From assembly GCA_036479435.1 (NCBI GenBank), contig JAZGFI010000046.1, positions 1 through 18,747 on the forward strand: a stretch of DNA of 18,747 bases, written 5' to 3'. Origin of the DNA: Planctomycetota bacterium. Its GTDB lineage: Bacteria; Planctomycetota; GCA-002687715; DRQF01. Positions 1 through 18,747 of the stretch are shown piece after piece (the first letter of the stretch is position 1; every line of letters starts with the position of its first letter). The translations under genes and the position numbers were made by a program. The notes beneath the pieces were generated by a model that was given only the letters and a program-made list of their open reading frames with translations, was not told the DNA's origin and did not search any database.

Positions 1-2
1 TT

Positions 3-1070
3 CGCCGCGAGAATGGTGAGCAGCAAAAAGTTCTCGGAGGCTTTGTCTTCGTGGCGGTAGACATGGTCCGCATGCCAGTTGGTGACGAGGTTGTTGAAGC
101 CTTCGTTCTCAATCGTCCAGCGCTTACGGGCAAGATCGACAAAGGCTGCCACTTCGATATCCTCAGCCGAAAATGAGCTGACCCAAAACCAGTTGAGGCC
201 TTCGACTTGTTCCGTCTTGCCGTCTAATTGACGTTTGATGGTTTTCGTTTCTAGGCAGGATACGACCCGCACTTTGACTTCATGATCCCACCAGCTTGAG
301 CAGCCAGCTAGGTCGCGGATCTGTTGATATCCCTGCTTGATTGGCCGATGAGCCACCGTCCCCTGCACATCCATCAGCAGCTTGGCTTCATGGAGTAGCG
401 TCGGGCAGTTTTCCTTGAGCACGGTGATGACCTGCTTGCCCTTGGCAAGCACGGATTTCCAAAAGCTTTGGCAGCTATAGAGCGCGTCACCTAAAACGAC
501 TTCGTAGGCCCGAGAGAAATTTTTGTGTACCCGTTCGTAGAGCACGAGGGCTGCGGTGATCTCCCCGTCGCTTTGTCGTTGAGGCTCGATGTCCACCATG
601 AAAGTAAAGTCGCGGCCGACAAGGTGAGCGGCGACGTAGCGATGATAGTACTGGGTCCGTGGCCCCGACTTGGTTTCCACCTGCCGTTTCAAACAGCCCT
701 TGCAGCAGCGCAGATAGCTTGTGTGGCTTTCATGGCCGTCAATGACCAAGGCCACTCGATTCTGCGACAAAGGCAAAAAACCCTTGTTGCGCTTCAGCTT
801 GAGAAACACCGACTGCAAAATGCCTCGTAATTCATCGGCGTCTACACCGGACATGACTCTAGCGATCGTGTCGGCACTCGGTGGCTCGCCGCCAAGCCAG
901 CGGAGAGCTGGGGCGCTTAGTTTGCTTTGCTCAAAAGCATGCAGACTCCCCAAGCGCGTCTGCAGCATCAAAAATGCGCTGCGGACGACGCGACCCATCG
1001 GAAAGCTCGGGCCTTTGCGGTGCTCCGTCATGAGATCGAAGTGACCGCTTAAACACCAAAGCTTTTCCAA
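3..1070 (-). CDS. DDE transposase (IS4-like fold; ISNCY/ISAs1-like), cut off by the window edge
   Basis: Not in the ORF track. Manual translation is open from the TAA at 1119-1121 to the window edge: LEKLW...VALVIDGHESH...CCKGCL...YYHRYV...DIEP...GEITAA...VVLGDALYS...VITVLKEN...RKRWTIENEGFNNL...HVYRH. D (IDG), D (GDALY) and E (RWxIEN) form a DDE triad. Start uncertain (TTG 1070 or ATG 1031). Confidence 0.9.
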   Translation of the reverse strand, partial: MEKLWCLSGHFDLMTEHRKGPSFPMGRVVRSAFLMLQTRLGSLHAFEQSKLSAPALRWLGGEPPSADTIARVMSGVDADELRGILQSVFLKLKRNKGFLPLSQNRVALVIDGHESHTSYLRCCKGCLKRQVETKSGPRTQYYHRYVAAHLVGRDFTFMVDIEPQRQSDGEITAALVLYERVHKNFSRAYEVVLGDALYSCQSFWKSVLAKGKQVITVLKENCPTLLHEAKLLMDVQGTVAHRPIKQGYQQIRDLAGCSSWWDHEVKVRVVSCLETKTIKRQLDGKTEQVEGLNWFWVSSFSAEDIEVAAFVDLARKRWTIENEGFNNLVTNWHADHVYRHEDKASENFLLLTILAA

Positions 1071-1108
1071 CGATGAAAAAAGCCGAGGGAGGATGATCCG
1101 ACCTGGGG

Positions 1109-1453
1109 CTATCGAGCGTTAACTCGGTCCAGGTAAAGCAGCCCAATCTCGTCAAGAAGCTTGCGAAGCTCTTGGTAATTGTCGACCCAAGCCAACACCT
1201 CTTCACGCATCGCTTTGGGGACATGGAATTGTTGAGATCGGCCGTCCACGCTGACTTGAATCGCAAGCGATTCATGGCGCTCGTCTTTGACCCAGCACTT
1301 GCAGCCCTTGTTGCCGCATCGGTTGCGGCGAACGAGCGGCGAGCCTCGCAAAAGACCAGACCCTGTGACGAGTTGTTTAATACGCGAGCGAAGCTCGCGT
1401 TCCTGTGCGGACATCGAAGCCCGGGGCATATTGCCTCTTGTTCTTGCATTCAT
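1109..1453 (-). CDS. Small IS-associated protein, DUF6788-like
   Basis: 114 aa with LLRGS...RCGNKGCKC...H motif and a helical C-terminus (EEVLAWVDNYQELRKLLDEI), directly upstream of the transposase. Alternative start at 1429 (AGAGG upstream). Confidence 0.8.
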   Translation of the reverse strand: MNARTRGNMPRASMSAQERELRSRIKQLVTGSGLLRGSPLVRRNRCGNKGCKCWVKDERHESLAIQVSVDGRSQQFHVPKAMREEVLAWVDNYQELRKLLDEIGLLYLDRVNAR

Positions 1454-1596
1454 ATATACTTTCTTACAAGAACTGTATGGAAAATCTAGATCAAAGTGGA
1501 TGCGAATTTGCTTTTTGTCTACGACAAAACAAAAGTCGTTGAAAACGGCCTCGAAATGAGGGTTACGGGAGGTTCGCCTCAGTCACTTTTTCTCGA

Positions 1597-1609
1597 TGCG
1601 GAATCGCTG
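1597..1609 (-). repeat. Candidate terminal inverted repeat of the IS (CAGCGATTCCGCA on the minus strand)
   Basis: Lies at the junction with the interrupted gene. The partner repeat is outside the window, so it cannot be confirmed. Confidence 0.4.
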
Positions 1610-1830
1610 CCTATGGCAGGAGTGGGATGAGCAACCAACTGGTCGTCAAAAGCCTGGCAAGGTTTTCAGGGAATTCAGCGAAACTCGAGCAGAATTGGCT
1701 TGCCGCTCTTCTTCGCCTCCGCCTTCGCGCTGGCAAGGCTCTTGTGCCAAGAACTTCTATCTTGCTGTGCCACCGCCATGAGCGGGATGCTCAACACGAA
1801 GCCCAAGGCCAATGCGCTCGCGATTCTCAT
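1610..1830 (-). pseudogene. 5' part of a secreted thioredoxin-fold (Thioredoxin_7-like) selenoprotein with a UxxUxxC motif, apparently interrupted by the IS
   Basis: Minus strand from ATG 1830 (AGGA 11 nt upstream): MRIASALALGFVLSIPLMAVAQQDRSSWHKSLASAKAEAKKSGKPILLEFR-TGA(1677-1675)-IP-TGA(1668-1666)-KPCQAFDDQLVAHPTPAI, then IS sequence. It has a signal peptide and a W..SL..A..EAKKSGKPILL.F thioredoxin-like segment, and both UGAs fall at the CxxC positions. Confidence 0.8.
1628..1666 (-). promoter_or_regulatory. Candidate bacterial SECIS hairpin(s) after the UxxU codons
   Basis: Hairpin B (1648-1628): UGA-CGACC-[AGUU]-GGUUG-C-UCA, loop 25 nt after the second UGA and 34 nt after the first, with GU at loop positions 2-3. 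Weaker hairpin A (1666-1648): AAAACCU-[UGCC]-AGG-C-UUUU, loop 15 nt after the first UGA. Confidence 0.55.
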
Positions 1831-1884
1831 CTGTTGACCATTCCTATCAGAACGAAGGTTCTGTGAATCGTAGCAGCTTGGTGC

Positions 1885-1943
1885 GTCGTTGCATCCTCAA
1901 CGACAGGCGCGTAGCGCGAAACCGAGGTCTCACGCTACGCGCC
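1885..1943 (-). repeat. Two adjacent intergenic hairpins (REP-like or terminator/processing structure)
   Basis: Perfect 11-bp inverted repeat GGCGCGTAGCG (1906-1916)/CGCTACGCGCC (1933-1943), extending to 17 bp with G-U pairs on the minus-strand RNA. Second inverted repeat GTCGTTG (1885-1891)/CAACGAC (1898-1904). Confidence 0.7.
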
Positions 1944-1952
1944 ATCTGATTC

Positions 1953-2444
1953 TCAGAACAGAAGCTCTTGAGCGTTCGAAAGGTAGACGAAGTTTGGGGC
2001 GTTGGGAGCCACGACGACCGCTTGGAGAATGACATGAAGGCCCGAGATGATTGACGGCGGAAGTTGCCAAGCAAAAGTTATCCCGCCTAAGGGAAGGGTG
2101 GGCGGACCGAGGAGCACGGTGCTGTCAAAAATGGCAATCGTCGAACCGGACCCGCTGGCGACCCAGGCTCCCGGGGCAGGTCCCATGGCGCTGGTTGGCG
2201 TGTTGAATCGGAGCTCCGCGACCAAAAAGAAGGCGAAACCGATCGGGTTCAGGTTGAGATGGTCAATTTCGACGGTGAGCAAATCGCCGCCGGAAATCGG
2301 TTTCGTATCCGGGAAGAGCGTCGCGACGCCGTTGACGCCAGTCGACAATTGAAGCTCAGGCCCATTGCCCGGAAAAGTCTGCGACACTGCGGGGAAGATC
2401 AAAAATGCTGAGAAGGCCATTGAGTAAATGAGAACGCGGATCAT
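1953..2444 (-). CDS. Secreted hypothetical protein; stand-alone copy of the C-terminal domain of the upstream protein
   Basis: 163 aa, AAGGA RBS, signal peptide (MIRVLIYSMAFSAFLIFPAVSQ). The mature part FPGNGPELQLSTGVNG...GGDLLTV...LQAVVV...LSNAQELLF parallels the C-terminus of the 4171-2467 protein. Confidence 0.8.
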   Translation of the reverse strand: MIRVLIYSMAFSAFLIFPAVSQTFPGNGPELQLSTGVNGVATLFPDTKPISGGDLLTVEIDHLNLNPIGFAFFLVAELRFNTPTSAMGPAPGAWVASGSGSTIAIFDSTVLLGPPTLPLGGITFAWQLPPSIISGLHVILQAVVVAPNAPNFVYLSNAQELLF

Positions 2445-2466
2445 GATTCATTGTCCTTTTTTGGGT

Positions 2467-4171
2467 TTAGAAACGGAGTTCGTGGCCGTCAGAAGCCATG
2501 ACATTGGAGATGACAGTTCCTAACGGCGACGGATTGCAGCATTACGCTGACGCCGGCTGGTAGTGATGGCAAAAGGAAGGAACGCAGGTTGCTGGCTGGC
2601 AGCAGGACGGGAACTCCAAAAAGAGAGTTATCGTCTTGAATGATGACGCCAGCGCTATCGATGTAGATAAAGTTGGGATACATGGCGTGCATGGGCGTGG
2701 GCGTTCCGGTCAGATAGGCGCGAGCAAAAATGAAGAACGGCGAGTTGTTTATCGTCCCGTTTGGCGAGAGAAAGTTCAGGTTCAAGATGTCGCCTGCCTG
2801 AACCGTGGAAAAACCTGAGATGCTTGGAGTCATCGGCGCAGAGTTGATGCCCACATCCATACGGAAGTCCTCGCCGGTTCCCGGGTAGGCCACGCTGGGA
2901 AGAACCGGGACAACGTTGAATGCCAAGGATTGAGAAGTCCCGGCCCCCGGCGTCATGACGGTGATTTGTATCGTCGTTGGGGAAGCGAGATCCGAAGCCA
3001 GCAGAGTGACGCCGAGCGCTGTTGGCCCGACGAAAGTCGTCGTATAGGGGTTATTGTCGACCTGTACGACCGAGTTCGGGCAGAAGCCTGTCCCCAGAAC
3101 CTGAATAGCCGTTGCGGGGGCACCGGCAGTGAGTGTGCTCGGGCTAAACGAAACGATGGAAGCCGGGCCCTGGGGATCGATTGCCAAAGGGACGATGCAG
3201 GATTGAGCGCCAGCCAAGTTGTTGGTGAAAGTGAGCGAGATTGGCCCGCCGCAGGTCGATACTGGACTTCCAGGAATCGTGACATTGAGACCGCCACTAG
3301 CCGAAGGAGTCGAAGTGAGAATCTGGCCGCTCGAATCCATCACGCTCGTACCCGCCCAAAGGCCTATGCCAGTGAAATGGACGACGGATGGATTTGGCGA
3401 CCAGGGAGCAGCGGGCGGTGTGTTCGCCAGAGGGGGCGCACTCAGGACTTGAAGGTCGAGGTTGTAGAACACATTGGGCGGTGTGATCGGCTGATTGTCC
3501 TTAAAAACTACGACGCAATACCAGCCAGGAGTTGTAACGTTGAAACTGATTGCGCCGGATGAGAACAACCCGTTTGCACCTGGAGCGCTCTGGCTGCGGG
3601 TACGCCAGTTCGAGTTTGAGCCCGGATCGAAAAGGCGAAAACGCAGCGCTGTAGTTGCAGCGGAGGTGACGGTCATGGTGAGCTGGTAGGTCCCCGCGAC
3701 CGGGAAGTGCATCTCAAACCCGCGGGCGACGGAACATGGAGACCAAGAGAAGGCGCCTGAATAGGGTGGTGTGTTTCCGGGGCTGGTCGGCCCACCCGTA
3801 GCGTCCATGAATGTTGTGATATTGGCGTGCTTGACTAGTGCGTTACCGCCGCTCGTTGTTTTTGAAGCAGTGCCATTGAGTGGTGCAATGGGGCCCAAAG
3901 CCCCGTTAGCGACCACAAACTCAGTGCGGGTGACACCAGCAGTGGAGCTGGCGGCCCCCATGGTCATCGTTACGTCGGTCGTTGAACCTGCAGCTCGTGC
4001 GATCGCTACGACGTTAAACCTCGGATCAGGGCTGATCGTAAAGGTACCTGTTGTTTGGGTTAGTGTGTCTTTGGGATTGAGGTTGAGTGTTTGCTGAGCG
4101 AGCAAAGGCGACGCCCCGAAACCGAGCGCCAGCGCCAAAATGAGTCCACAAATCTTGCCAAGGCCGTTCAT
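2467..4171 (-). CDS. Secreted beta-rich protein with an IPT/TIG (Ig-like) domain; apparent frameshift near 2524
   Basis: Likely start ATG 4171 (AGGAGACAGGAA upstream; signal peptide MNGLGKICGLILALALGFGASPLLAQ). Thr/Gly/Pro-rich, with an IPT/TIG-like segment SIVSFSPSTLTAGAPATAIQVLGTGF...TTTFVGPTALGVTL. The track ORF stops at 2489, but a shifted frame gives LGTVISNVMASDGHELRF-TAA (2467). Confidence 0.8.
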
Positions 4172-4324
4172 TTCCTGTCTCCTGTCGAGAGGCTTGTATG
4201 CGCTCGACGAGTTCGGTCTCATCGAGAGGGACGGACGCCGCGGCGCCGTTCAAGCTTCCAAGCGACAAGGGGTGGCGAACCCCGTAAGAAATTCCCAGCG
4301 CTTTTTTTGATGGCGGAGTAGGGC

Positions 4325-4810
4325 ATGAAGAACACCGAGTTCAGTTATGGCGAACTCCGGGACATCGCGGTTCAGTGCATGAGTGGCGAAAACTCAGGCT
4401 GGACCTGGACCCCAACCGACGTCGCCAACGAAGTCGTGTTGGGCCTGCTCCACTCTGGCCGAGGACTCTCAGATCTAAGGACTCGTGCCTTCACGAAGAT
4501 GTTGGTGACTCGGGTGGTCATCGATCGAGCGCGGTCCCGCCGGCGCCTCAAAAGAGGAGGCGACCTTAAGCGTGTCGAATTCCATGATCCTCTGGCCACC
4601 GGGGATTGGGAACGACGGGTGCAACTGGACGATGCATTTCGAGAACTCGATAGTCGTGGACATGCTCAGCTGTCGGAAGTCTTGAGCCTGCGCTATCTCG
4701 GCGAGTTAACGGTGAGCGAGGTAGCGAAAGTACTCGGCCTGTCACTCAGCTCGGTCGAGAAGCGCCTACAGATCGGGAAAGCGACTCTGAAGGGACTGCT
4801 GGATGAGTAG
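4325..4810 (+). CDS. ECF-type RNA polymerase sigma factor (planctomycete kinase-associated type)
   Basis: YGELRDIA...TWTPTDVANE (region 2), IDRARSRRRLKRGG, and region 4 HTH VLSLRYLGELTVSEVAKVLGLSLSSVEKRL. GGAG RBS. Overlaps the kinase start by 8 nt. Confidence 0.9.
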   Translation: MKNTEFSYGELRDIAVQCMSGENSGWTWTPTDVANEVVLGLLHSGRGLSDLRTRAFTKMLVTRVVIDRARSRRRLKRGGDLKRVEFHDPLATGDWERRVQLDDAFRELDSRGHAQLSEVLSLRYLGELTVSEVAKVLGLSLSSVEKRLQIGKATLKGLLDE

Positions 4811-7421
4811 CCCCGAGAAAAACTCTCCGAGTCTAGACCCGATTGCGCAGGCCGGTATTCTCGACGGGCTCATCGATCTCAGTTTGGCGGAAGCGCGAGT
4901 CAAAGTGGCTAGCATGCCAATCTCTGACGCCGACCGAAGAGTCCTGGAAGGCATGTTGATTTCGGTGTTTGCGGCTGGCGATGAATCGGCCGAGCGTGAT
5001 GACAGCGGGCCTGTAACGGAGGACCTTCGTGTCGGTCCCTACCGCTGCTTAAGTCTCTTAGGCGAGGGCGGCCAATCACGAGTCTACCTCGCTGAACATC
5101 AAGAAAGTGGGATGCGGGTCGCCCTCAAGGTTCTGCATTTGCGCCGGATCTTAGACCTCGCTCGCTCGCGGTTGCGACGCGAAGCGGACGTTCTTGCGGG
5201 TCTTGATAACTCAAGCATCGCGAAGTTCGTGGAGGTGAACCTCGACGGGGAGCAGCCTTGGTTAGCGATCGAGTACATCGAAGGAGTCAGTTTTGAATCC
5301 GTCGTCGCGAAACCTCCCCAATCTGAGGCGGAACTTCGCGAGCGCATGGCCGTTGTCGCAAGTTGCTGCGAAGCAATGGTCGCTGCCCACACCGCTGGTG
5401 TCGTACATCGGGATCTCAAGCCCGCTAACATCATGCTTCGGGCCAATGGGTCTCCGGTTATCGTCGATTTTGGAATCGCGATCATCCTTGAAGCACAGTC
5501 CGAGAAATTAACCCAGGGTGCTTACGTCGTTGGGACCCATCCCTTCGTTTCTCCAGAAAGGCTAGCGCTGCGGCACCAGACATCGTCGCAAGATGATTTG
5601 TGGTCGCTCGGCGTCGTCTTGCATCAAGCGGTTTTCGGCTGCTTGCCGTTCCATGGGCGTTCTGAAAACGAAGTCATCGACGCTGTCTTGGGCGATCGAC
5701 TTTTCTCTGATGAGATCTGTGCAATGCCGGGCCGAGGCTCCGAGCGCAATCTCATTCGCAAAGCCCTGATGCCAGATCTGCGCGACCGCTATCGATCCGT
5801 TCGCGATTTAGCGGATGATCTTGAACGTTTGAGGCGCGGGGAGTCGATCCTGGCACGTGAGTTTGCGTTCTCCGTGAGGCTTGGCCGATGGGCGCGCCAA
5901 CATGCCATTACTTTGGGATTCGTGTGTTTGATCAGCACCCTTGCCACGCTCGCTGTTGTTTCGATCTCGCGCCAAGCCAATCGTGCCGAGCGCGCCACCG
6001 AGCAAGCCGCGGGTACGCTGAGTGCCGCCTTGCAGATTTCGACGACGGCGCTTGAGCTATACGATGAAGTCAAGGGATCGGCGGCACCGACGCCGAAAAT
6101 TCAGCGCTATGTTGAACAGTTGGATGCCGGAATCGAGGCGCTCGAGTTTGGCGATGCCGAAGGCGTTTACAGCCTGGATCTACGGGCCCGGGTCCTGCGA
6201 GAGCGCGGGAACATTGCGCATCGAAGGGGCCTTTGGCCCGATGCCTATGGCTTTAGAGTTCGTGAGCTCGCATTGCGGAAAGAGGCGCTGCATGGCCGTC
6301 GAGATTTGCGGACCCGCATCGACTATTCGATCGCTTCGGTTTTGGTGGGCGATGCGCTGCGTCGTCTCGGCGACAGAAAGGCAGGATTTGAGCGCTACCG
6401 CCTCTCGATGGAGATTGATCGACAGCTAGCGGAGGACTTCCCCAAGGATGTGGAAGCACTCGACAACCTGAGCCGCAGCCTTCTTCGCCTCAGCGATTTT
6501 CATTGGAATGCGGGTCGCGAATTGGAAGCGATCGAGTTGGCGCTAGACCACCACGCATCCGCACGAGCGCTTTACCGGATCGATCCCAAACGCTCGGCTT
6601 CTCTAGACAACCTCGTGATCAGTAATCTTCAGATCAACAAGTTTCTTCACCAGTGTGAATCAAAGCATGAACTACGGTCGAGGCTTTTCGAACAGACGGC
6701 ACAGTTTCTAAAAGAGCTGCGAGAGAGTGGTGCGTCGAAGGACAGGATCATGAGGCGAGCTTGGGCTTTCGAGCTATCGCTGGCGATATTCGAGCAAACG
6801 CAGGGCAACTTTGAAGCGGCGCGTCTCGCTATTTCGACGCGTCTCGTCTTTTTCAAGAGAAGGCATGAACTCGACCCAGAGCGGAAGGAATACCGTGATG
6901 GAATTCTCGTAGGCTTGGAGAAGCTCATTCAATTGGCCATCTTGCAGAAACGTGGGAGCGAAGCGGCGCGCCTCAATGTGGAGCTTACTTTGATGCTGCA
7001 GTCCATCGAGTCGCGAGCACAAGGACTTGGGGCTGCGCGGCTCAGATTTCTCCTGGACGATGCTGTGGATCGAGGTGATCTTGAGGCCGTCCAACGTTTG
7101 TCGGCAAAGCGACGGAGCATGGCGAAGAAGTTCGCCGAGCCGGACCTCGGCGACCCGCAAGCCCTTGTCGCCGCCGCTCGATACCTGTGGCCAGATCCGA
7201 CCCAGCGTACCCCGGTACTTCGTTTTCTTAGAAGAGCGCTTTCCTCTCCGAAGCCGCTAACGATGTACAACGACCAGTGGGCAGCCAATCGCCTCCTGGA
7301 GATCGGTGATCCAATCGAAGCGAGACAGTATCTGGATCGGGCCGAGGAGCGCCGCGGGCGCGCGCGTGAGATCCTCGAAGGCGCTCTAGAGGTTGGCGAC
7401 CTGTTTCTTTCCCGACCTTGA
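4803..7421 (+). CDS. Hanks-type Ser/Thr protein kinase with a transmembrane helix and C-terminal TPR-like helical repeats
   Basis: LLGEGGQSRVY, VALKVL, HRDLKPANI, DFG, GTHPFVSPE and DLWSLG motifs; hydrophobic AITLGFVCLISTLATLAVVSI; repeats such as VGDALRRLGDRKAGFERYRLSMEIDRQLAEDFP. Confidence 0.93.
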   Translation: MSSPEKNSPSLDPIAQAGILDGLIDLSLAEARVKVASMPISDADRRVLEGMLISVFAAGDESAERDDSGPVTEDLRVGPYRCLSLLGEGGQSRVYLAEHQESGMRVALKVLHLRRILDLARSRLRREADVLAGLDNSSIAKFVEVNLDGEQPWLAIEYIEGVSFESVVAKPPQSEAELRERMAVVASCCEAMVAAHTAGVVHRDLKPANIMLRANGSPVIVDFGIAIILEAQSEKLTQGAYVVGTHPFVSPERLALRHQTSSQDDLWSLGVVLHQAVFGCLPFHGRSENEVIDAVLGDRLFSDEICAMPGRGSERNLIRKALMPDLRDRYRSVRDLADDLERLRRGESILAREFAFSVRLGRWARQHAITLGFVCLISTLATLAVVSISRQANRAERATEQAAGTLSAALQISTTALELYDEVKGSAAPTPKIQRYVEQLDAGIEALEFGDAEGVYSLDLRARVLRERGNIAHRRGLWPDAYGFRVRELALRKEALHGRRDLRTRIDYSIASVLVGDALRRLGDRKAGFERYRLSMEIDRQLAEDFPKDVEALDNLSRSLLRLSDFHWNAGRELEAIELALDHHASARALYRIDPKRSASLDNLVISNLQINKFLHQCESKHELRSRLFEQTAQFLKELRESGASKDRIMRRAWAFELSLAIFEQTQGNFEAARLAISTRLVFFKRRHELDPERKEYRDGILVGLEKLIQLAILQKRGSEAARLNVELTLMLQSIESRAQGLGAARLRFLLDDAVDRGDLEAVQRLSAKRRSMAKKFAEPDLGDPQALVAAARYLWPDPTQRTPVLRFLRRALSSPKPLTMYNDQWAANRLLEIGDPIEARQYLDRAEERRGRAREILEGALEVGDLFLSRP

Positions 7422-7528
7422 CGACCCTGAGGGAGCCAAAGCGGCGTCGGCGAGCATTGTGACAAGGCCGTTACTCAATCATCTGCTGTTTGCGGTCATA
7501 GTGGTTTATGACCAGTGGAGGTGATTTC

Positions 7529-8683
7529 ATGCAGATCGTTCGAGTTTATGGTCCCGGTTTCGGGGCTTTGGCTTTGTCTGTTCTTCTTTTGACCTTGGTG
7601 GCCTGCGAGTGTCGCGTTTGCGCGGAACACGATGGCAAGCAGCCGGCAAACCCAAATGGTGAACAGGCCCTAGGTCTAGTTCTTCCCGAGTTCCGGGGGA
7701 ACGCGGAGACCACTCGGGAAGCTGTGGCGGGCTGGGTGTCGAAGGGCGAGGCGGCCATACCGTCTTTGAAGGAAGGCCTTGAGGACGAAAATGCCAAAGT
7801 GCGGCGAGCTTGCCGGGAAGCGCTGGCGAAGATCACGGGGCAGTGGGGTTGGGATGAGGGGTTGAAGTGGCGGCGCTCGATGGCGGAGGCGAAGGTGGAT
7901 GCCGAAAAGTCCGGCTTGCCGATCATGTTGCTTCAGCTGTTCGGACGCTTTGACGAGGAGTTTTGCTGAGCGAACGGCAAGCTCGCGAGAACCGTGACGT
8001 TCTCGGATCGCCGTATTATTGCTTTTGTGGAGCAGAACTTTATTCCGGTTTGGGAGACGGTCTCGCCGGTGCGCGTCGCGGTGTTTAAGCTTGGCGATGG
8101 CAAGGAAGTAAAGGGCACCGTGGGCGGCGAGATCGCCTTGTCTTTTTGCCGCCACGACGGCTTGGTTTATGACATCCTGCCAGCTTTGCAGTCGCCGGCG
8201 GTTACCTATCGCGCGATTGTCGAGGCGCGAGGCATCTACGAAAAACAGGCGCGTACGCTTCCTGGCGAGACATCGACAAAGAGGATGCAGGCGCGCGTCA
8301 TTCAGTATCACTTACGCGCTCTCAGCAATTTGAAGAAAACGCGCGGGCTAGTGCCGAAGCTTGCGGCGCAGAAAGTGGGGGATGCTCACGGAAAGCTCAT
8401 CTCCCGGCTGCAGATGGGGTCGAAGGCGGATCGGGATGTGACGCGGCAGCTCTTGTCGAAAACCATGGTGGTGACGCCGGCAGAAACGATCACGGTGGTC
8501 GAACCCGGTGGGCTTTGGCTCTACAAAGCGCTTATCCACGATGAGTTGAGGCGCGGAAACTTGAGGACGCCGGCGGAACTCAAAATAAAGCTGTTCGAGG
8601 AGATCCTCGATCAGCCTTTGAAAGGTGGCACCGAGATCTACGACATCGACGATGTGATGCCGCTCTCTTTGTTCAGCGAGTAG
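7529..8683 (+). CDS. Predicted selenoprotein (384 aa, Sec147): lipoprotein signal, HEAT repeat and SelN-like thioredoxin-fold domain with a CU motif; joins track ORFs 7508..7969 and 7994..8683
   Basis: GGAGGTGA RBS (7517-7524) before ATG 7529; lipobox LVAC; HEAT-like AIPSLKEGLEDENAKVRRACREALAKI. The two ORFs are in the same frame, separated only by TGA 7967-7969, giving LLQLFGRFDEEFC-U-ANGKLARTVTFSDRRIIAFVEQNFIPVW. A SECIS-like hairpin follows. Confidence 0.85.
7974..8014 (+). promoter_or_regulatory. Candidate bacterial SECIS element
   Basis: Perfect 7-bp upper stem CGAGAAC (7986-7992)/GTTCTCG (7999-8005); loop CGTGAC (G at position 2 followed by U) begins 23 nt after the UGA; lower stem ACGGC (7974-7978)/GCCGT (8010-8014). 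Confidence 0.75.
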
Positions 8684-8737
8684 CGATGCCAGGGGAATCC
8701 ACCTCGCCAGTCTCTATTCTTTTCCAAATTTGTCGGG

Positions 8738-8765
8738 TTCTCAGCGTCCCTCCAGGGCTTATAAT
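8738..8765 (+). promoter_or_regulatory. Candidate sigma70-type promoter for uvrA
   Basis: Exact TATAAT at 8760-8765, with TTCTCA (4/6 match to TTGACA) 16 nt upstream, 65 nt before the uvrA start. Confidence 0.4.
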
Positions 8766-8830
8766 TCTGGATTCGCAACTGTCCACCGGAAACGGTTTTC
8801 GAGGGACCGCTGCGAGGGCCGGAGACCGGG

Positions 8831-11800
8831 ATGGGGCAAAAGGACATCGTCGTCAGTGGGGCGCGGACCCACAACCTCGACAATGTCGGGGTGCGGATTC
8901 CCCGCGGCTCGTTGACCACCATTACCGGCGTGTCCGGGTCCGGAAAATCGTCGCTCGCGTTCGACACGATTCACAACGAAGGCCAGCGGCGGTTTTTGGA
9001 GTCTCTGTCGTCCTACGCGCGTCAGTTTTTGGGTCAGATCGAAAAACCCGACGTCGATCACATTGAAGGTCTGTCGCCGACAGTTTCCATTGACCAAAAG
9101 ACCGTTAACCGCAATCCGCGGTCGACGGTGGGCACGGTCACTGAAGTCTACGACTTCATGCGGCTCCTTTTTGCCCGCTTGGGCCAACCGTCTTGTCCCG
9201 ACTGCGGAGAGGAGATCCGTCCCCAAACGGTGGATGAGATCCGCGACGCTCTGCTTACCGAGCGCAAGGGCCACAACCTCATCGTCATGGCGCCGATCGT
9301 TAAGGATCGAAAGGGCGAGTATCGCAAGGAGCTCGAAGACCTTCGGCTTCAAGGTTACGCCCGCGCCCGTATCGACGGGGAACTCAGAAGGCTTGACGAA
9401 GACATTGAGCTGAAGCGCTACGTCCGTCACACCATCGAGATCGTACTAGACCGGATCAAGGCCACGCCGGAAAAGGCGGGGCGGCTGGTGGAATCGCTCG
9501 AGCAAGGGCTTAAACTCGGCGACGGTGTCGTCAACGTTCTGGACGGCGACGAACACATTTCCTTTTCGTCTCGATTTGCCTGCAAAAGCTGCGGCGCGGG
9601 CTTTCCCGAGATTGAGCCGCGGACTTTTTCCTTCAACTCCCCGCACGGCGCCTGCAAACCCTGTGGCGGCATCGGCATCCTTGGTGACGTCGACGAAAAC
9701 CTCATCGTTTCCGATCCGAACAAAAGCCCCAATGAGGGCTGCCTAGATCCGCTGGGTAAGTCCAAGCTTCGGGACTACGGCGGCATCTCTACTTTGTCTC
9801 TGCCGAGTATTGCCAAGCACTTCAAAGTCGACCTCGACAAACCCTGGAAGTCACTACCCAAAAAGTTCAAAGACGCCATCCTCTACGGCAGCGGCGAGAC
9901 CAAGTTGGAAGTTGCTACCTCCTACGAGGGCAAGAGCTGGAAGATGAAGTCGAAGCGCCTGCGCACTTTGGCGGGGATGATCGCGGGCATGCGGAAGTCC
10001 TGGGAAGAGCGTGCCCCCAGCCACATGGCACACTTTTTTACGGACCATCAATGTCGCGATTGCGAAGGCTCACGCGTCGGGAAGCTCGCCCGCTCGGTTA
10101 GTTTTCGCAATAAGAGCATTGCCGACCTCGCGCAGTTGGCCATTGATGATCTGTGCGAGTTTTTCGGCAAGGTCAAGCTCTCCAAGAAGGAAATTGCGAT
10201 CGGCGAGCCGATCTTCAAAGAAATCCACGCGCGGCTCGAGTTCCTAACTGCGGTGGGATTGGGGTACATCCAGCTCGATCGCAGCGCTGCGACTTTATCC
10301 GGAGGCGAATCGCAGAGAATCCGCCTCGCGACCCAAGTCGGCTCGCGATTGAAGGGTATCCTCTACGTTTTGGATGAGCCGAGTATCGGCCTGCATCATC
10401 GCGATAACTTGCGTCTAATCGAAACGCTTAAGGGTCTGCGCGATCTCGGCAACACCGTATTAGTCGTCGAGCACGACCAAGAGATGATGGAGTGCTCCGA
10501 TCACGTTATCGACATTGGCCCTGGCGCGGGGGTTCACGGGGGGCGCATCGTCGGAGAAGGACGGGTCGCGGATCTCATGTCCGCGCCGGAATCCAAAACC
10601 GGAGCTTACCTTTCGGGTGGCCGGGCGATCGCGGTGCCCACTAAGCGCCGGAACGCCAGCCAAGACTACATCGAAGTCAAAGGCGCTTGCGAAAACAACC
10701 TACGCAACATCGACGTCGCCTTTCCGCTTGCCTGCCTCAGCGCGGTGACGGGGGTTTCAGGTTCTGGCAAGAGCACTCTGATCGACAGCATTTTGAAGAA
10801 GGCTTTGGCCCAACATTTTCACGGAGCATTGAGTCGCCCCGGAAAACATCGCCGCATCAATGGCTTGCAGCACATCGACAAAGTCATCGAGATCGACCAA
10901 AGCCCCATCGGGCGAACGCCGCGGTCGAACCCCGCGACCTACACCAAGGTCTTCGACCTTATCCGCGACCTTTTTGCCTTGGTCCCCGACGCCAAGGCGC
11001 GAGGTTACAAAAAGGGTCGCTTTTCCTTCAACGTTACGGGCGGTCGCTGCGAAACCTGTCAAGGGGCGGGCGTGAAGATCGTCTCGATGCAGTTTTTGCC
11101 CGATGTCGCGGTGACTTGCGACGATTGCAACGGGCGGCGTTTTAACGGCGAGACCCTAGAGATTCTCTACCGCGAAAAAAGCATCTACGACGTTTTGGCG
11201 ATGACTTTTGAAGAGGCGGGGGAGTTCTTCGCCAACCACCCGAAGATCGCGCGCATTCTGAATGCGCTCAACGACGTTGGTTTGGGCTACGTGCGACTCG
11301 GGCAACCCGCGACGACCTTGTCGGGCGGTGAAGCCCAGCGCGTCAAGCTTGCCTCGGAGTTGCGGCGCCCGGCGACCGGCAAAACTCTGTACTTGTTGGA
11401 CGAGCCGACAACGGGCTTGCACTTTGAGGACATTGAGCGTTTGATTGCGGCTTTGAACGGCTTGGTCGATTCCGGCAACACCGTCGTCGTTATTGAGCAC
11501 AATCTCGATGTCGTGAAAGTCGCCGACTGGATTGTTGATTTGGGCCCGAAGGGTGGCTCGGGCGGTGGCGAGGTGATCTACGCCGGGCCTTTCGACGGGA
11601 TCTTAAAGAAGAAGAAATCCGCTACCGGGGTGGCACTCGTCGAGCTTTTGAGCCCGCGGAAACGAAAGAAATCCACGGCCAAGCCAAAGGCCATCGAGGA
11701 TCTTTCGGCCGAAGGCAAGATCGTGATCAAAGGCGCGCGGACCCACAATCTTAAGAGCGTTGACGTTGAGATCCCCTCGGGCCAGTTCACCGTGGTGACG

Positions 11801-14674
11801 GGTCCTTCAGGTTCTGGAAAGTCGTCCTTGGCTTTCGACACGATTTTTGCCGAAGGGCAACGTCGCTTTGTAGAGTCCTTGTCGTCTTACGCGCGCCAGT
11901 TTTTGGGTCGACTTGATAAAGCACCCGCCGATGCGATTGAGGGTTTAGGCCCGGCGATTGCGATCAATCAAAAAAACGCGTCTCGCAATCCGCGGTCAAC
12001 CGTCGCCACAACGACTGAAATCTATGACTACCTGCGTTTGCTTTTCGCCCGAGTTGGCAAACCGCACTGCCCGCAGTGTGATCGCGAGTTGTTGTCGTTT
12101 GCTCCCGCGGATGTCTGGAAGAAACTGAGAAAACGCGAGGGTGAAAAAGGCCGTTTGGTCGCCCCCTTGTTCCGTCGCGAGTTTGGCACGCCCTTGCGCC
12201 TCGCCAAGCCCACGGAACTAAAGACCGTAGTGCGCGAGTTGCGCGAAGACGGCTGGGTTCGTGTGCTATTGGATGGCGAGGAGTTTCGTTTGGACGGCAG
12301 CGGCGGGAAGCTCCCGGCCTTGTCGAAGATCAAGAGCGTCGATCTGGTCATTGATCGCATCGCGATCGCTCCCAAGGTTCGAGCGCGGGTGTTGGAAGCG
12401 GTGGAAAGCGCATACGCCGCGGGCCGCGGCATCTGCGCTTGGTTGCCCGCGGGCAGCGATGACGCGGCTAAAGTCGAGTGGTTTACCCGCGAGCGCCTTT
12501 GCGTCGAGCACGGCACCGAGATTGAGCGTGATCTTCCGCCGCGCATGTTCTCATTCAACAGCCTTTTGGGCTCCTGCCCGACTTGCCTCGGGGTCGGGCG
12601 CGTGCGGCGTTGTGATCCCGATCTGTTGATCGACCGGCCAGAACGGGCTCTCCTCAAAGGAGCGATGAACAAAAAGGTCGGTGGCTTCTTCAACCGCCGT
12701 TCTTACTTTCGCAAGGCGCTGAAAGGCCTATCGAAACAAGGCGATTTTGATTTGAACGCGCCTTTTGGCGAATTGTCGGCCACAGCCAAGACCCTGATTC
12801 TCGACGGCTCAAGCGAGAAAGTCCCCTTCAAGCACACCAGCCGGCGCAAGGGCCGCAGCAGCCAATGGGAGATGAATGTCACCTGGCCGGGACTGCGCGG
12901 GTACCTTGAGAAGTGGTTCCATGAGACCGAATCTGAAAACTGGCGAGAAGCCATCACCGAAGTTATGCGCGATGACGACTGCGGCGCTTGCCAGGGCAAA
13001 CGTCTGAAGCCGGTGGCGCTTGCCGTGACGCTGGCAAAAAAGAGCATCTCAGATGTGACGTCGATGACGATCGAGGCCGCGACGAGATTTTTTGCGGGGC
13101 TCAAGTTGAAAGCGTCCGACAAAAAAATTGCCGAGCGTTTGTTGAAGGAAGTTCAGGACCGCCTGAGTTTTTTGAACAAAGTGGGATTGGAGTACCTCAC
13201 CCTAGATCGCAGCGCCGGGACTTTGTCTGGCGGTGAGTCACAACGCATTAGGCTGGCGACGCAAATCGGCAGCCGGCTGTCGGGCGTTATCTACGTCTTG
13301 GACGAGCCGAGCATTGGCCTGCACCAGCGCGATGTCGCGAACTTGCTCACAACTTTGCACGAACTCGTCAAACTCGGGAACACGGTGATCGTTGTCGAAC
13401 ACGATGAAGAAACGATCGAGGCCGCGGATTGGATTGTCGACATCGGGCCGGGTGCTGGACACCACGGGGGCGAGGTCGTCTTCCAAGGGCCTCGGCCTCA
13501 GATTTTGGATCATCCAACGTCTTTGACCGCGGCTTACTTGACCGGGCGTGCCCGCGTCGAGATGCCGCCGAAGCGTCGCTCCGGCAATGGCAAAGAGCTT
13601 CGTATCGACGGGGTCACCACCAATAACTTGAAGGGCATCTCGGTAGGCTTTCCGCTCGGTTGTTTTACCTGCGTGACGGGAGTTAGTGGCAGTGGCAAGA
13701 GCAGTCTCGTGGTGGAGACCTTGGTGCCAGCCTTAGAAAAGACCTTCAACCGCAAAGAATCGGGCCGCAACCGCGCCGCCTACAAAAAGCTCCTCGGCGC
13801 CCGGCATGTCTCGGACATTGTGGTCATCGACCAAGCGTCAATTGGTCGCACCCCCAAATCGAACCCGGCGACGTACACTGGAGTTTTCGACATCATTCGC
13901 GCCGTCTTCGCGAAGAGTCCCCAGGCGAAACTCCGCGGCTACAAGCCGGGGCGCTTTAGCTTCAATGCTCCCGGGGGGCGCTGCGAGGCCTGCTCGGGCC
14001 GGGGGTCCATTAAGATCGAGATGAACTTTCTCGCCGACGTCTGGATTGAGTGTGACGTCTGCCGTGGCCGCCGCTATGACCGCGAGACTCTGCGCGCGAC
14101 CTGGCGAGGCAAAAGTATCGCTGACGTCCTCGAAATGGAAGTGAGCGAAGCCTTGGAATTCTTTGGGAATCACCGGCGGATCGTCGCCGTGCTTTCGACC
14201 TTAGAAGACGTGGGTTTGGGGTACCTAAAACTTGGTCAACCGAGCAACACCCTTTCTGGGGGCGAGGCGCAACGCATCAAGCTGGCGCGCGAATTATCGC
14301 GAAAGCCCCGCGGCGAAGTCCTCTACCTACTCGACGAGCCGACCACCGGATTGCACTTCGACGATGTGGCGAAATTGACCGCGGTGTTGCACCGGCTTGT
14401 GGATGCCGGACACAGCGTCGTTGTCATCGAGCATAATCTCGAGGTTGTAGGTGCCAGTGACCATGTCATCGACTTGGGTCCGGAGGGCGGGGAGGCCGGG
14501 GGCCAAGTCCTCGTCGCCGGAACCCCTGAAGAGTTGATGTCGAGCAAGGCCTCTCATACGGGGCGCTATTTGGCCGCAGCTCAGCGGCGGCGATCTGGCC
14601 GAGGAAAAGTCGCGAAGAAAAAGCGCGGCTTGAGTTCTAAGGAAAAAGGAGCGGAAGATGGGATCCCGGCGTGA
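8831..14674 (+). CDS. uvrA: Excinuclease ABC subunit A, double-length (two fused UvrA units)
   Basis: 1947 aa with four Walker A motifs ([36 protein letters not shown]), four LSGGE signatures, two copies each of [24 protein letters not shown] and IGRTP.SNPATYT, and Zn-finger CxxC pairs in both halves. GGAG RBS. Confidence 0.97.
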
Positions 14675-16457
14675 CGGCCCGCTGATCGTCCAAGGCGACA
14701 AGACGGTTCTTCTCGACGTTCACCACCCCGGTGCCGAAGCGGTGCGCGAGGGTCTGGGATCGTTTGCGGAATTGTTGAAGACTCCCGATCACATGCACAC
14801 CTATCGTATCTCTTCGCTTTCGCTGTGGAACGCGGCGAGTTCGGGCATGAGTTGCCGTGATGTGCTCGATATTTTGGAAAACTACGCGCGCAATCCGATC
14901 TCCAAGGCCATCAAGGCCGAGATCTCTTCGATCATGGATCGATTCGGCCGGCTCATCATGCGACGCCGCGGTGAACACCTCGTCGTCGTGGTATCGGAAG
15001 ATTTGTGGGACGACGTCTGCGCCTTGGCGTCGATCAAAGACCTGGTCGACGAGTTCGACGACGAGAATCGCGAACTTGTCATCGGCGAAGGGGCTCGCGG
15101 AGAGATCAAGCGCGCGCTCACTCGTATGGGCTACCCCGTCGAAGATATGGCGGGATTTGTTGAGGGCGACCATCTCGCTTTGGCCCTATTGACCACGGAC
15201 AACATCGGCGAAGCGGGCGCGTTCAGCCTTCGGCCCTACCAGCGCGCCGCGTCCGAGGCCTTTTACCAAGATGGCGATAGCCGGGGCGGCAGCGGAGTCG
15301 TGGTCTTACCCTGCGGGGCTGGGAAAACTCTTACCGCGATGGCGGTGATGGAGCTTTATCAAACCAAGACCCTCATCTTAACGAACAGCACCACAGCGGT
15401 ACGCCAGTGGGTGCGCGAGCTCTTGGAAAAGACAGATCTAAAAGCTAGTGACGTCGCCGAGTATTCGTCGGAGTCGAAGTCGATCGCGCCCGTCACTGTT
15501 TCGACTTATCAAATGATCACCTACCGTCACAGCAAGACGGAGGGCTTTCCGCATTTCGATGCCTTCATGGCCGTGAACTGGGGCTTGGTGGTTTACGACG
15601 AAGTTCACCTTTTACCCGCCCCAGTGTTTCGCATGACCGCCGAGTTGCAAGCGCGCCGGCGCCTCGGCTTGACGGCCACGCTCATTCGCGAGGACGGTCG
15701 CGAAGACGAGGTCTTTTCTCTAATCGGACCCAAACGCTTCGACATGCCTTGGCGCCGGTTAGAAAAAGGCGGCTACATCGCCGAGGCCAAGATTGTCGAG
15801 ATGCGGGTGCCGCTATCGGGTTCCATCGCCGACACCTACGAACTGGTAGGGAGGCGCGAGCAGTATCGAATCGCGGCTGAAAACGGCTTGAAGCTGCGCG
15901 CCCTGAGGGCGCTTTTGGCTCGGCACCGTGGCGACCGCATCTTGATCATTGGGATGTATCTGCGGCAGCTCGCGAGGATTCGTGCTCTCATCGGGGCGGA
16001 GATCATCACCAGCCGTACCGCCCAAGAAGATCGCGAGCGCCTTTATGCGGACTTCCGCGAGGGGCGCATCACAACCTTGATTGTGTCGAAAGTCGCCAAC
16101 TTCGCGGTGGATCTGCCCGATGCGAACATCGCGATCCAAGTCTCGGGAACATTTGGTTCCCGGCAAGAAGAAGCCCAACGCTTAGGCCGCGTGTTGCGGC
16201 CTAAAAGCCACAATCGCGAGACAGTTTTCTACACCCTCGTTACCGAAGACACGACGGAAATACGATTCGCTGAGAACCGTCGCCTCTTTTTGACCGAACA
16301 GGGCTATGATTACGAGATTGTCGAGGCCCGCCGCGAGTTCGCAGAACTCGACTGGGCGGACAGCAACGACTTGGAACGAGCGGGGATCGAAGAAGAGTTT
16401 GATTCCGCGATCGAAAAGGCACGAGCAAAGTTCGGCGCAGGAGAGAAAAGTCGGTGA
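14658..16457 (+). CDS. xpb: Bacterial XPB/Ssl2-like superfamily 2 DNA helicase
   Basis: PLIVQGDKTVLLDV N-terminus, LRPYQ, GVVVLPCGAGKT, DEVH, LGLTATLIREDG and QVSGTFGSRQEEAQRLGRVLRPK. AAGGAG RBS inside the 3' end of uvrA (17-nt overlap). Confidence 0.95.
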   Translation: MGSRRDGPLIVQGDKTVLLDVHHPGAEAVREGLGSFAELLKTPDHMHTYRISSLSLWNAASSGMSCRDVLDILENYARNPISKAIKAEISSIMDRFGRLIMRRRGEHLVVVVSEDLWDDVCALASIKDLVDEFDDENRELVIGEGARGEIKRALTRMGYPVEDMAGFVEGDHLALALLTTDNIGEAGAFSLRPYQRAASEAFYQDGDSRGGSGVVVLPCGAGKTLTAMAVMELYQTKTLILTNSTTAVRQWVRELLEKTDLKASDVAEYSSESKSIAPVTVSTYQMITYRHSKTEGFPHFDAFMAVNWGLVVYDEVHLLPAPVFRMTAELQARRRLGLTATLIREDGREDEVFSLIGPKRFDMPWRRLEKGGYIAEAKIVEMRVPLSGSIADTYELVGRREQYRIAAENGLKLRALRALLARHRGDRILIIGMYLRQLARIRALIGAEIITSRTAQEDRERLYADFREGRITTLIVSKVANFAVDLPDANIAIQVSGTFGSRQEEAQRLGRVLRPKSHNRETVFYTLVTEDTTEIRFAENRRLFLTEQGYDYEIVEARREFAELDWADSNDLERAGIEEEFDSAIEKARAKFGAGEKSR

Positions 16458-18478: not shown

Positions 18479-18480
18479 GA

Positions 18481-18507
18481 AAGAGGCCGAAGCCGGTTTC
18501 GGGTCTT
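18481..18507 (+). terminator. Possible terminator-like hairpin after the repair genes
   Basis: CCGAAG-[CCGG]-TTTCGG with outer AAGA/TCTT pairing, 3 nt after the stop codon. No strong U-tract. Confidence 0.35.
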
Positions 18508-18671
18508 ATCGGCGGGCTGCGGCCTTGACGACGTCGCCGACCCAATGCCATGTCTCACCGTCGTGGCGATTTTCATTGCAACTTAAGATTTCGGCGGAAT
18601 CCCACGCTCTCAGTGACCGGCCCCCCGGTGTCAGAATAGTTGTCCCTGATCTAAGGTCGGTGGGCCCCGGT

Positions 18672-18735
18672 GAAGAGCGAAGCTCTTTGCAGGGCTCTTC
18701 CTTCGCCGCCGTAGGCGGCTTCCCCCATGGGGGAA
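18672..18735. repeat. Cluster of short palindromes (REP-like or structured RNA)
   Basis: AAGAGC-GAA-GCTCTT, GCCGCC-GTA-GGCGGC (18705-18719) and the perfect 16-bp palindrome TTCCCCCATGGGGGAA (18720-18735). Confidence 0.5.
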
Positions 18736-18747
18736 CGATGCTTGATC

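Follow-up and report, generated by a model that had tools for sequence, protein, structure and literature searches.

An 18,747-nt stretch of a Planctomycetota genome (GenBank assembly GCA_036479435.1, contig JAZGFI010000046.1, positions 1 to 18,747 of the forward strand), analysed as a whole and referred to here as the window, carries two open reading frames (ORFs), 7508..7969 and 7994..8683 (+), that lie in one common frame and are parted only by a TGA at 7967-7969, directly after a Cys codon (TGC, 7964-7966). The initial annotation had taken these ORFs for the halves of one 384-residue gene read through UGA as selenocysteine (Sec), and the coordinates and translation, a conserved TGA column, a downstream hairpin and the Sec machinery of the genome all agree with that proposal. 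We consider it likely that 7529-8683 (+) is a single coding sequence (CDS) of 384 codons plus a TAG stop, with UGA-147 read as Sec, which encodes an exported thioredoxin-fold selenoprotein with the decoding, active site and mechanism proposed below. On comparative sequence evidence, the TGA itself is almost certainly a Sec codon.

Translation of 7529-8683 with TGA as U yielded 384 residues with U147, in which the peptide given in the initial annotation is present letter for letter. A Shine-Dalgarno-like GGAGGTGA can be read directly at 7516..7523 (+), 5 nt upstream of ATG 7529, and it favours a start at this codon over ATG 7508. Upstream of GTG 7994, where the second ORF would begin, neither a purine-rich stretch nor a Shine-Dalgarno sequence was seen, as had been remarked at the outset, and no terminator-like or promoter-like pattern was found between both ORFs. 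TGA is the ordinary stop for six of the eight large window ORFs that were checked; the other two, the selenoprotein gene included, end in TAG, and the selenoprotein gene is the only one of the eight with an internal in-frame TGA.

Conservation of the in-frame TGA

The read-through protein (P0001) was searched against 401 genomes of the same phylum and matched 74 of them. Among the matches listed, 82 of 106 carry an in-frame TGA, 22 are free of stops and two have a TAA only (counted from the table). The 30 best fetched loci, all from the same phylum, contain a single TGA in the same alignment column in 27 cases and a Cys codon in the remaining three (L038, L047, L048). Protein similarity extends to both sides of the TGA in the 27 TGA loci, which is the basis for drawing one CDS across it, and likewise in the alignment of close orthologues (A5; 37–56% identity). 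In the one species-per-genome collection searched with A5, 10 loci were found, and they come from metagenome-assembled genomes of Planctomycetota only. The residue that precedes Sec is Cys in 24 of the 27 loci (C-U) and Thr in three (T-U).

An exhaustive search of 1.84 billion representatives returned 1221 matches at E<=0.001. Residue 147 is spanned by 101 of the 172 database relatives that were aligned, and 98 of these 101 have Cys at this position, with D, W and S found once each. The initial annotation had named Cys or TGA at this position, with conservation on both flanks, as the pattern to look for in homologues, and Trp or Arg as the pattern that would speak against Sec; Cys dominates, and a single relative has Trp. 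Together with the preceding residue, the spanning relatives read S-C (92), C-C (4), T-C, P-C, C-D, C-W and C-S (one each). Those of the 172 that do not span the site are fragments that either end at residue 146, as P0027, P0049, P0069, P0073, P0114, P0131, P0135 and P0152 do exactly, or start at residue 156, as many others do. The gene is thus split by standard annotation in just the way that had been anticipated.

The possibility that the TGA is a read error was examined in Logan contigs of four sequencing runs from three studies, of which two runs may be the source sample and the third study is separate. Three of the four runs cover 7450-8750 completely with 0 differences, and the TGA is identical across the three studies. 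RNA runs were looked for as well, and none was found among the sequencing runs.

A bSECIS-type hairpin and the Sec machinery

A hairpin of the bacterial selenocysteine insertion sequence (bSECIS) type was located at 7986..8005 (+), on the evidence of covariation and of published bSECIS constraints; a hairpin after the TGA had already been noticed in the initial annotation. The 7-bp stem (7986-7992 / 7999-8005) closes a 6-nt loop, CGUGAC (7993-7998), and has a folding energy of -8.1 kcal/mol on its own. It starts 16 nt downstream of the UGA, with 23 nt from UGA to loop, and in all 27 Sec loci a hairpin folds between +19 and +39, counted from the U of UGA. The bSECIS model in section 5 and the Fig. 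2A legend of PMC13188914 specifies a loop of 3–9 nt, a stem of 4–16 bp, a G in the first two loop positions, a spacing of 16–37 nt and a minimum free energy (MFE) of <= -7.5 kcal/mol, and the window hairpin agrees with every one of these published values (6-nt loop, 7 bp, G then U at loop positions 2-3, 23 nt, -8.1 kcal/mol).

In an ungapped alignment (A2), 96.8% of the cells of the 7-bp helix are paired, and five of the seven pairs show changes on both sides, such as A-U to C-G in seven sequences and A-U to U-A in seven. The covariation score was reached by 0 of 500 shuffles, a count that is no probability since the sequences are mutually related; in a control that preserves this relatedness, registers slid by 1-3 columns paired in just 18–56% of cells. 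The stem changes cross amino-acid replacements (A-R-T-V-T-F-S versus M-R-T-V-L-Y-A, with differing Arg codons). The three Cys-form loci keep 3-4 of the seven pairs in that register. The MFE z-score of the 81-nt region is just -1.55, and support for the hairpin therefore comes from covariation and not from stability. A search of Rfam, for which the presence of a bacterial SECIS model was not checked, left the hairpin region unmatched (best 9.2 bits, E 3.4, to a snoRNA). The loop GUG at 7994-7996 is the very codon that has been called as the start of the second ORF, and the database fragments all begin at the same residue because this GUG of the SECIS loop is taken for a start codon. Where a SECIS loop supplies a conserved GUG, gene callers can be misled systematically by this apparent start codon.

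The genome is a draft, 92% complete and in 299 contigs, and it contains all the parts of the Sec machinery that the initial annotation had proposed to look for: selA (526 bits), selB (323 bits, or 357 with a C-terminal piece), selD (372 bits) and tRNA-Sec (67 bits), all above the curated cut-offs. The genes for tRNA-Sec, selD (with an in-frame TGA of its own) and selA are adjacent on one strand (G000:C117:33648-36236), and selB lies on contig C237. In a small sample of related genomes, selA was present in five of five with TGA-type orthologues vs two of five whose best match is the Cys form; the three Cys-form genomes that lack it are 91–100% complete.

Architecture, family and relation to selenoprotein N

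The predicted protein begins with a signal peptide and lipobox L23-V24-A25-C26 (7529..7606, +), a pattern read by eye against the consensus [LVI][ASTVI][GAS]C at the end of such peptides. An AlphaFold model built on a 46-sequence alignment (A3; mean predicted local distance difference test score, pLDDT, of 81.9) has a signal helix at residues 12-27 that ends at L-V-A-C26, five close orthologues have lipobox-type ends (LMTGC, LAAC, VSAC, LCAC, IVGC), and a signal peptide or lipobox was recognized by eye in all 29 related read-through proteins examined. The lipoprotein signal of the initial annotation stands as such a pattern, and the product is exported and probably lipid-anchored at Cys26, judging from these sequence features. 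Right after the lipobox Cys, the window protein has a Cys cluster (C26-E-C28-R-V-C31; 7604-7621, +) that is absent from the orthologues.

Residues 27-104 are modelled as a linker and HEAT-like helices, with about two HEAT-like helical hairpins at residues 53-103 (7685..7837, +). In Pfam, residues 72-103 score below threshold for both HEAT (17.5 vs 23.5 bits) and HEAT_2 (16.6 vs 27.7 bits), and of the HEAT-repeat build first proposed a short HEAT-like stretch in the model is retained, while the label was too strong. A thioredoxin-fold domain follows at residues about 105-245 (7841..8263, +). In the model, a strand (132-138) leads into a loop that ends in C146-U147 and then a helix (148-155), which places the redox residue just before helix 1 of a thioredoxin fold. 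Sequence and model thus agree in assigning TGC-TGA (7964..7969, +) to a vicinal Cys146-Sec147 pair at the CxxC nucleophile position, and the initial view of such a pair inside a thioredoxin-like unit was well founded. The C-terminal helical domain (residues 249-384; 8273..8680, +) has the conserved motifs VVEPGG and TP.EWK..VFE.IL.Q.L.GG; a clear structural match to it was looked for and none was found. Foldseek with the whole model gave no match at E<=0.001, and the thioredoxin domain was resolved by VIA-align alone. When the profile (A4) of a second bacterial subfamily, with the motif S-C-U-G-S-G, was used as the query in place of the window protein, the Sec column paired with the first Cys of the solved CPYC thioredoxin 2lst in a weak alignment (E 0.085). 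The window protein is unmatched by Pfam PF13899 (Thioredoxin_7). Its Cys-type relatives read C-A-N-S, a monothiol CxxS motif.

The window protein is a member of a large bacterial family of exported proteins, as yet without a name. Its Cys-type members range much more widely than the close orthologues: Cys-type clusters around the relative P0060 in the ESM Atlas are commonest in Acidobacteriota, Myxococcota, Planctomycetota and Cyanobacteriota, and all are labelled "hypothetical protein", with thioredoxin-domain folds and no common Pfam family. No Pfam model scored above its cut-off for the window protein, and NCBIfam release 20.0 gave 0 families at E<=10; as a positive control, a window fragment at 1594-1830 (-) matched NCBIfam family NF041199 at 2.3e-16 and a full-length relative did so at 3e-132. 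The May 2026 review PMC13188914 counts 119 prokaryotic selenoprotein families, and its Table 1, in parts 1 and 2 of section 7, contains none with this motif or architecture, the nearest being Trx7/PDZ NF041199 (CxxU). Literature searches on selenoprotein N in bacteria, the selenoproteomes of Planctomycetes, selenoproteins of Poribacteria and SEPN1 with a UAS domain, supplements aside, turned up no description of the family. The suggestion that it is new thus holds for Pfam, NCBIfam release 20.0 and those parts of the inventory, and the bacterial selenoproteome gains a family that all three lack. In standard annotation, this gene and hundreds of relatives appear as pairs of "hypothetical proteins", and once the UGA is recognised, what would be a complete exported redox enzyme is restored. 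In other genomes of the phylum, at least four further Sec subfamilies (L049-L068) have the same domain and Sec column, with the motifs …KEGC-U-AAGD…, …KEGT-U-AAGH…, …GGL-U-SAGH… and …DDESC-U-GSGK… (SelN-like). Several copies occur in some genomes (G335, G305, G229 and G213, with four matches each).

The initial annotation had called the protein similar to eukaryotic selenoprotein N (SELENON), which is defined by the motif S-C-U-G. The S-C-U-G-S-G subfamily occurs in 11 of the 401 phylum genomes, always with one TGA, and has 0 matches at E<=1e-8 in the genome of the window. The C-U columns coincide in the hhalign profile comparison of the window family (A3) with this subfamily (A4), which covers 132 columns at a probability of 98.4% (E 8e-15) and aligns the thioredoxin-like part alone (query residues 103-235). 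The window protein very probably shares ancestry with these bacterial SelN-like proteins, as far as profile similarity can tell. A protein of the S-C-U-G-S-G subfamily annotated as an N-terminal fragment (P0174) adjoins an Atlas cluster auto-named "Putative selenoprotein n 1 (Fragment)" with a score of 0.91, in a scoring where 4-10 of every 100 shuffled proteins also score around 0.9 (187/256 features; template modelling (TM) values of 0.64/0.69). A second neighbour is a cluster of 431-residue proteins from Chordata only (236 residues, TM 0.65 by query). This predicted-fold neighbourhood is a good lead to selenoprotein N, not proof. Word-index searches with the window protein, the S-C-U-G-S-G protein and its domain profile against longer proteins returned bacterial proteins or fragments only and no eukaryotic SELENON, and profile searches of the PDB returned no SELENON entry. 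Text matches to "SELENON" in reviews on prokaryotes proved to be the word "selenonucleoside". The link to SELENON is accordingly indirect: it passes through the bacterial S-C-U-G-S-G subfamily, and its last step consists of an automatic cluster name and predicted folds.

Like SELENON and the S-C-U-G-S-G proteins, the window protein has Cys next to Sec, and the pair falls in the matching column of a homologous thioredoxin-like domain, a correspondence tested against the S-C-U-G-S-G subfamily only. Its motif is F-C-U-A-N-G and not S-C-U-G, and it lacks both the ~250-residue N-terminal domain that the S-C-U-G-S-G proteins share with the Atlas "selenoprotein n" and Chordata clusters and the EF-hand and type II membrane anchor of SELENON, in place of which it has HEAT-like and helical C-terminal domains. 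Both proteins are located outside the cytoplasm, SELENON in the lumen of the endoplasmic reticulum (PMC10650576) and the window protein by virtue of its signal peptide. The redox domain is therefore SelN-like by homology to the S-C-U-G-S-G subfamily, an indirect tie, and the SELENON label overstated the case: the window protein is not a member of the SelN family proper, and its active-site domain would work like that of SelN.

Other known systems resemble the window protein in part. The Trx7/PDZ (seleno)proteins of NF041199 are likewise exported thioredoxin_7-like selenoproteins and common in the same phylum, but they read U/C-x-P-U/C with one or two Sec at the classic CxxC spacing and carry PDZ domains, and their model leaves the window protein unmatched. 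It differs from the Thioredoxin_7, DsbD-gamma, DsbH and AGR2-AGR3 class (PF13899 and relatives) in the sub-cut-off Pfam scores of relatives, in a long, insertion-rich loop before the active site and in having Sec and a vicinal Cys in place of the CxxC pair. In mammalian thioredoxin reductase, the adjacent Cys-Sec of the G-C-U-G centre, which can close to an eight-membered selenenylsulfide ring, belongs to the flexible tail at the C-terminus of a flavoenzyme, whereas the pair in the window protein is at the start of the first helix of a thioredoxin fold. A redox centre of this kind, with adjacent Cys and Sec at the active site of a thioredoxin fold, is unusual.

The C-U-A-N, C-U-A-A-G, L-U-S-A-G and S-C-U-G-S-G Sec subfamilies of Planctomycetota and the much larger Cys-type S-C-A-N-S family might tentatively be united in one ancient superfamily of exported monothiol/selenol thioredoxin-fold proteins from which the redox domain of animal selenoprotein N was drawn, a proposal we regard as rather doubtful. 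If it were true, the window protein would be a lipid-anchored thiol-repair selenoenzyme of the envelope and a genetically tractable bacterial model for the active-site chemistry of SELENON. Selenoprotein N, a human protein linked to muscle disease, has a catalytic mechanism that is not yet well defined. Through its homology to the S-C-U-G-S-G proteins, a big bacterial family is tied to this protein, and the bacterial members could be far easier to express, mutate and crystallise.

Proposed chemistry, alternative explanations and neighbouring loci

In the mechanism that we propose, SelB with Sec-tRNA(Sec) would read UGA 7967-7969 as Sec on the signal of the hairpin inside the CDS (7986-8005), and Sec147 would take the place of the attacking Cys of CxxC before the first helix of the thioredoxin fold. 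Its selenolate could attack an oxidised sulfur (disulfide or sulfenic acid) of a cell-envelope protein, or a peroxide, after which the neighbouring Cys146 would resolve the intermediate by forming a vicinal selenenylsulfide with Sec147, like the one at the G-C-U-G end of thioredoxin reductase, and an envelope reductant would recycle it. Cys207 may serve as an alternative resolving residue.

Several points weigh against parts of this interpretation. Support for Sec insertion is comparative and not experimental, lipoprotein status comes from a motif recognised by eye, and Sec is assigned to the CxxC position through the weak alignment to 2lst. Thioredoxin_7 is matched by just three of 13 relatives tested, below the cut-off (16.7–19.6 vs 27 bits). 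One 314-residue relative (P0065) has Trp at the Sec position (…DKFC-W-TNARLAR…), which may reflect a gene called under a code with TGA as Trp or a true TGG, and another relative has D. We infer chemistry, substrate and reductant solely from fold and motif. Not every member has the vicinal Cys, given T-U in three of the 27 Sec forms, L-U or T-U in other Sec subfamilies and Ser before Cys in 92 of the 101 spanning relatives, and the selenenylsulfide step at C146-U147 may thus be non-essential to the family. Cys207 is invariant in close orthologues and could be the resolving residue rather than Cys146.

If the locus held two genes, a 146-residue lipoprotein with a true TGA stop would be followed by a 229-residue protein from GTG 7994. 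Every gene caller behind the databases divides it in this way, and a GTG, ATG or equivalent start-type codon lies at that spot in all homologues, but the conserved GUG is accounted for by the SECIS loop CGUG, and the break would split the thioredoxin fold between strand 1 and helix 1, at a site across which the 98 Cys-type relatives are continuous. The second ORF would also have neither a Shine-Dalgarno sequence nor any signal peptide of its own, and we regard two genes as very improbable. It is similarly hard to believe that the UGA is decoded as something other than Sec, be it Trp or Cys through near-cognate decoding or through a code in which TGA is sense: TGA ends six of the eight large ORFs checked and occurs inside none of the seven others, the genome has the full Sec machinery, the covarying hairpin fits a SelB-type signal, and the replacement is Cys in 98 of 101 relatives, as expected for Sec, against which stands the W of P0065. 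A sequencing or assembly error, or a recent pseudogene, is the reading to which we give the least credence. The genome is a draft in 299 contigs and a truncated selenoprotein remnant lies elsewhere in the window; the TGA is nevertheless kept in 26 other genomes at 21–56% protein identity, both halves are well conserved and without frameshifts, and contigs from the three studies, two runs of which may be the source sample, show no difference over 7450-8750.

Where Sec decoding is accepted, the product may still be something other than a thiol-disulfide reductase, namely a peroxidase, a protein that binds or carries metal, selenium or sulfur, or a redox sensor with output to the pair of an extracytoplasmic function (ECF) sigma factor and a Ser-Thr kinase encoded just upstream in the same orientation. 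With C-A-N-S, the Cys forms have a single thiol in the motif, as do AGR2 and ERp44, proteins that work through mixed disulfides and not through catalytic turnover, and the large C-terminal domain matches no known fold. No finding contradicts such a function directly. A kinase or sigma gene lies within about 1.5 kb at five of 29 related loci by our tally; the neighbourhood link is nonetheless weak, since Ser-Thr kinases and sigma factors of this sort abound in the phylum. We hold a function of this kind to be unlikely and prefer the exported thioredoxin-fold selenoprotein with the chemistry proposed above.

The ECF sigma gene (PF07638; 4325-4810, +) overlaps by 8 nt the start of the gene for an 872-residue Ser/Thr kinase with TPR (4803-7421, +), and kinase or sigma genes also stand beside L021, L024, L031, L033 and L039. 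These neighbours are suggestive of a link to envelope stress, which is not established, the loci being too few for a claim.

On the opposite strand, 1594-1830 (-) is a 79-codon remnant with a signal peptide, a thioredoxin_7-like start and two in-frame TGA codons (…LLEFR-U-I-P-U-KPCQAFDDQ…). It covers positions 2-46 of the 390 of the NF041199 model, is truncated and lies near a DDE transposase gene (3-1070, -); its full-length relatives (frames of about 420–500 residues with one, two or no TGA) occur in the 168 of 401 phylum genomes matched by the fragment. Elsewhere in the same genome, a distant TGA-containing thioredoxin-like ORF with a 416-residue frame (G000:C262:49459-50706, -, equal to L096:667-1914; …MDGHPMGCV-U-NNGVVDR…) has a downstream hairpin whose loop is also CGUGC, is unmatched in NCBIfam and is possibly another uncatalogued selenoprotein. 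Downstream of the selenoprotein gene, 8831-18478 (+) is occupied by a cluster headed by a 1947-residue protein of two UvrA-like units, in which UvrA_inter and UvrA_DNA-bind domains occur twice each and ABC domains several times. After it come, with overlapping starts, a helicase of the XPB/ERCC3 type (14658-16457) and a Helicase_C_3 protein (16454-18478). This cluster is unusual and looks related to DNA repair or defence.

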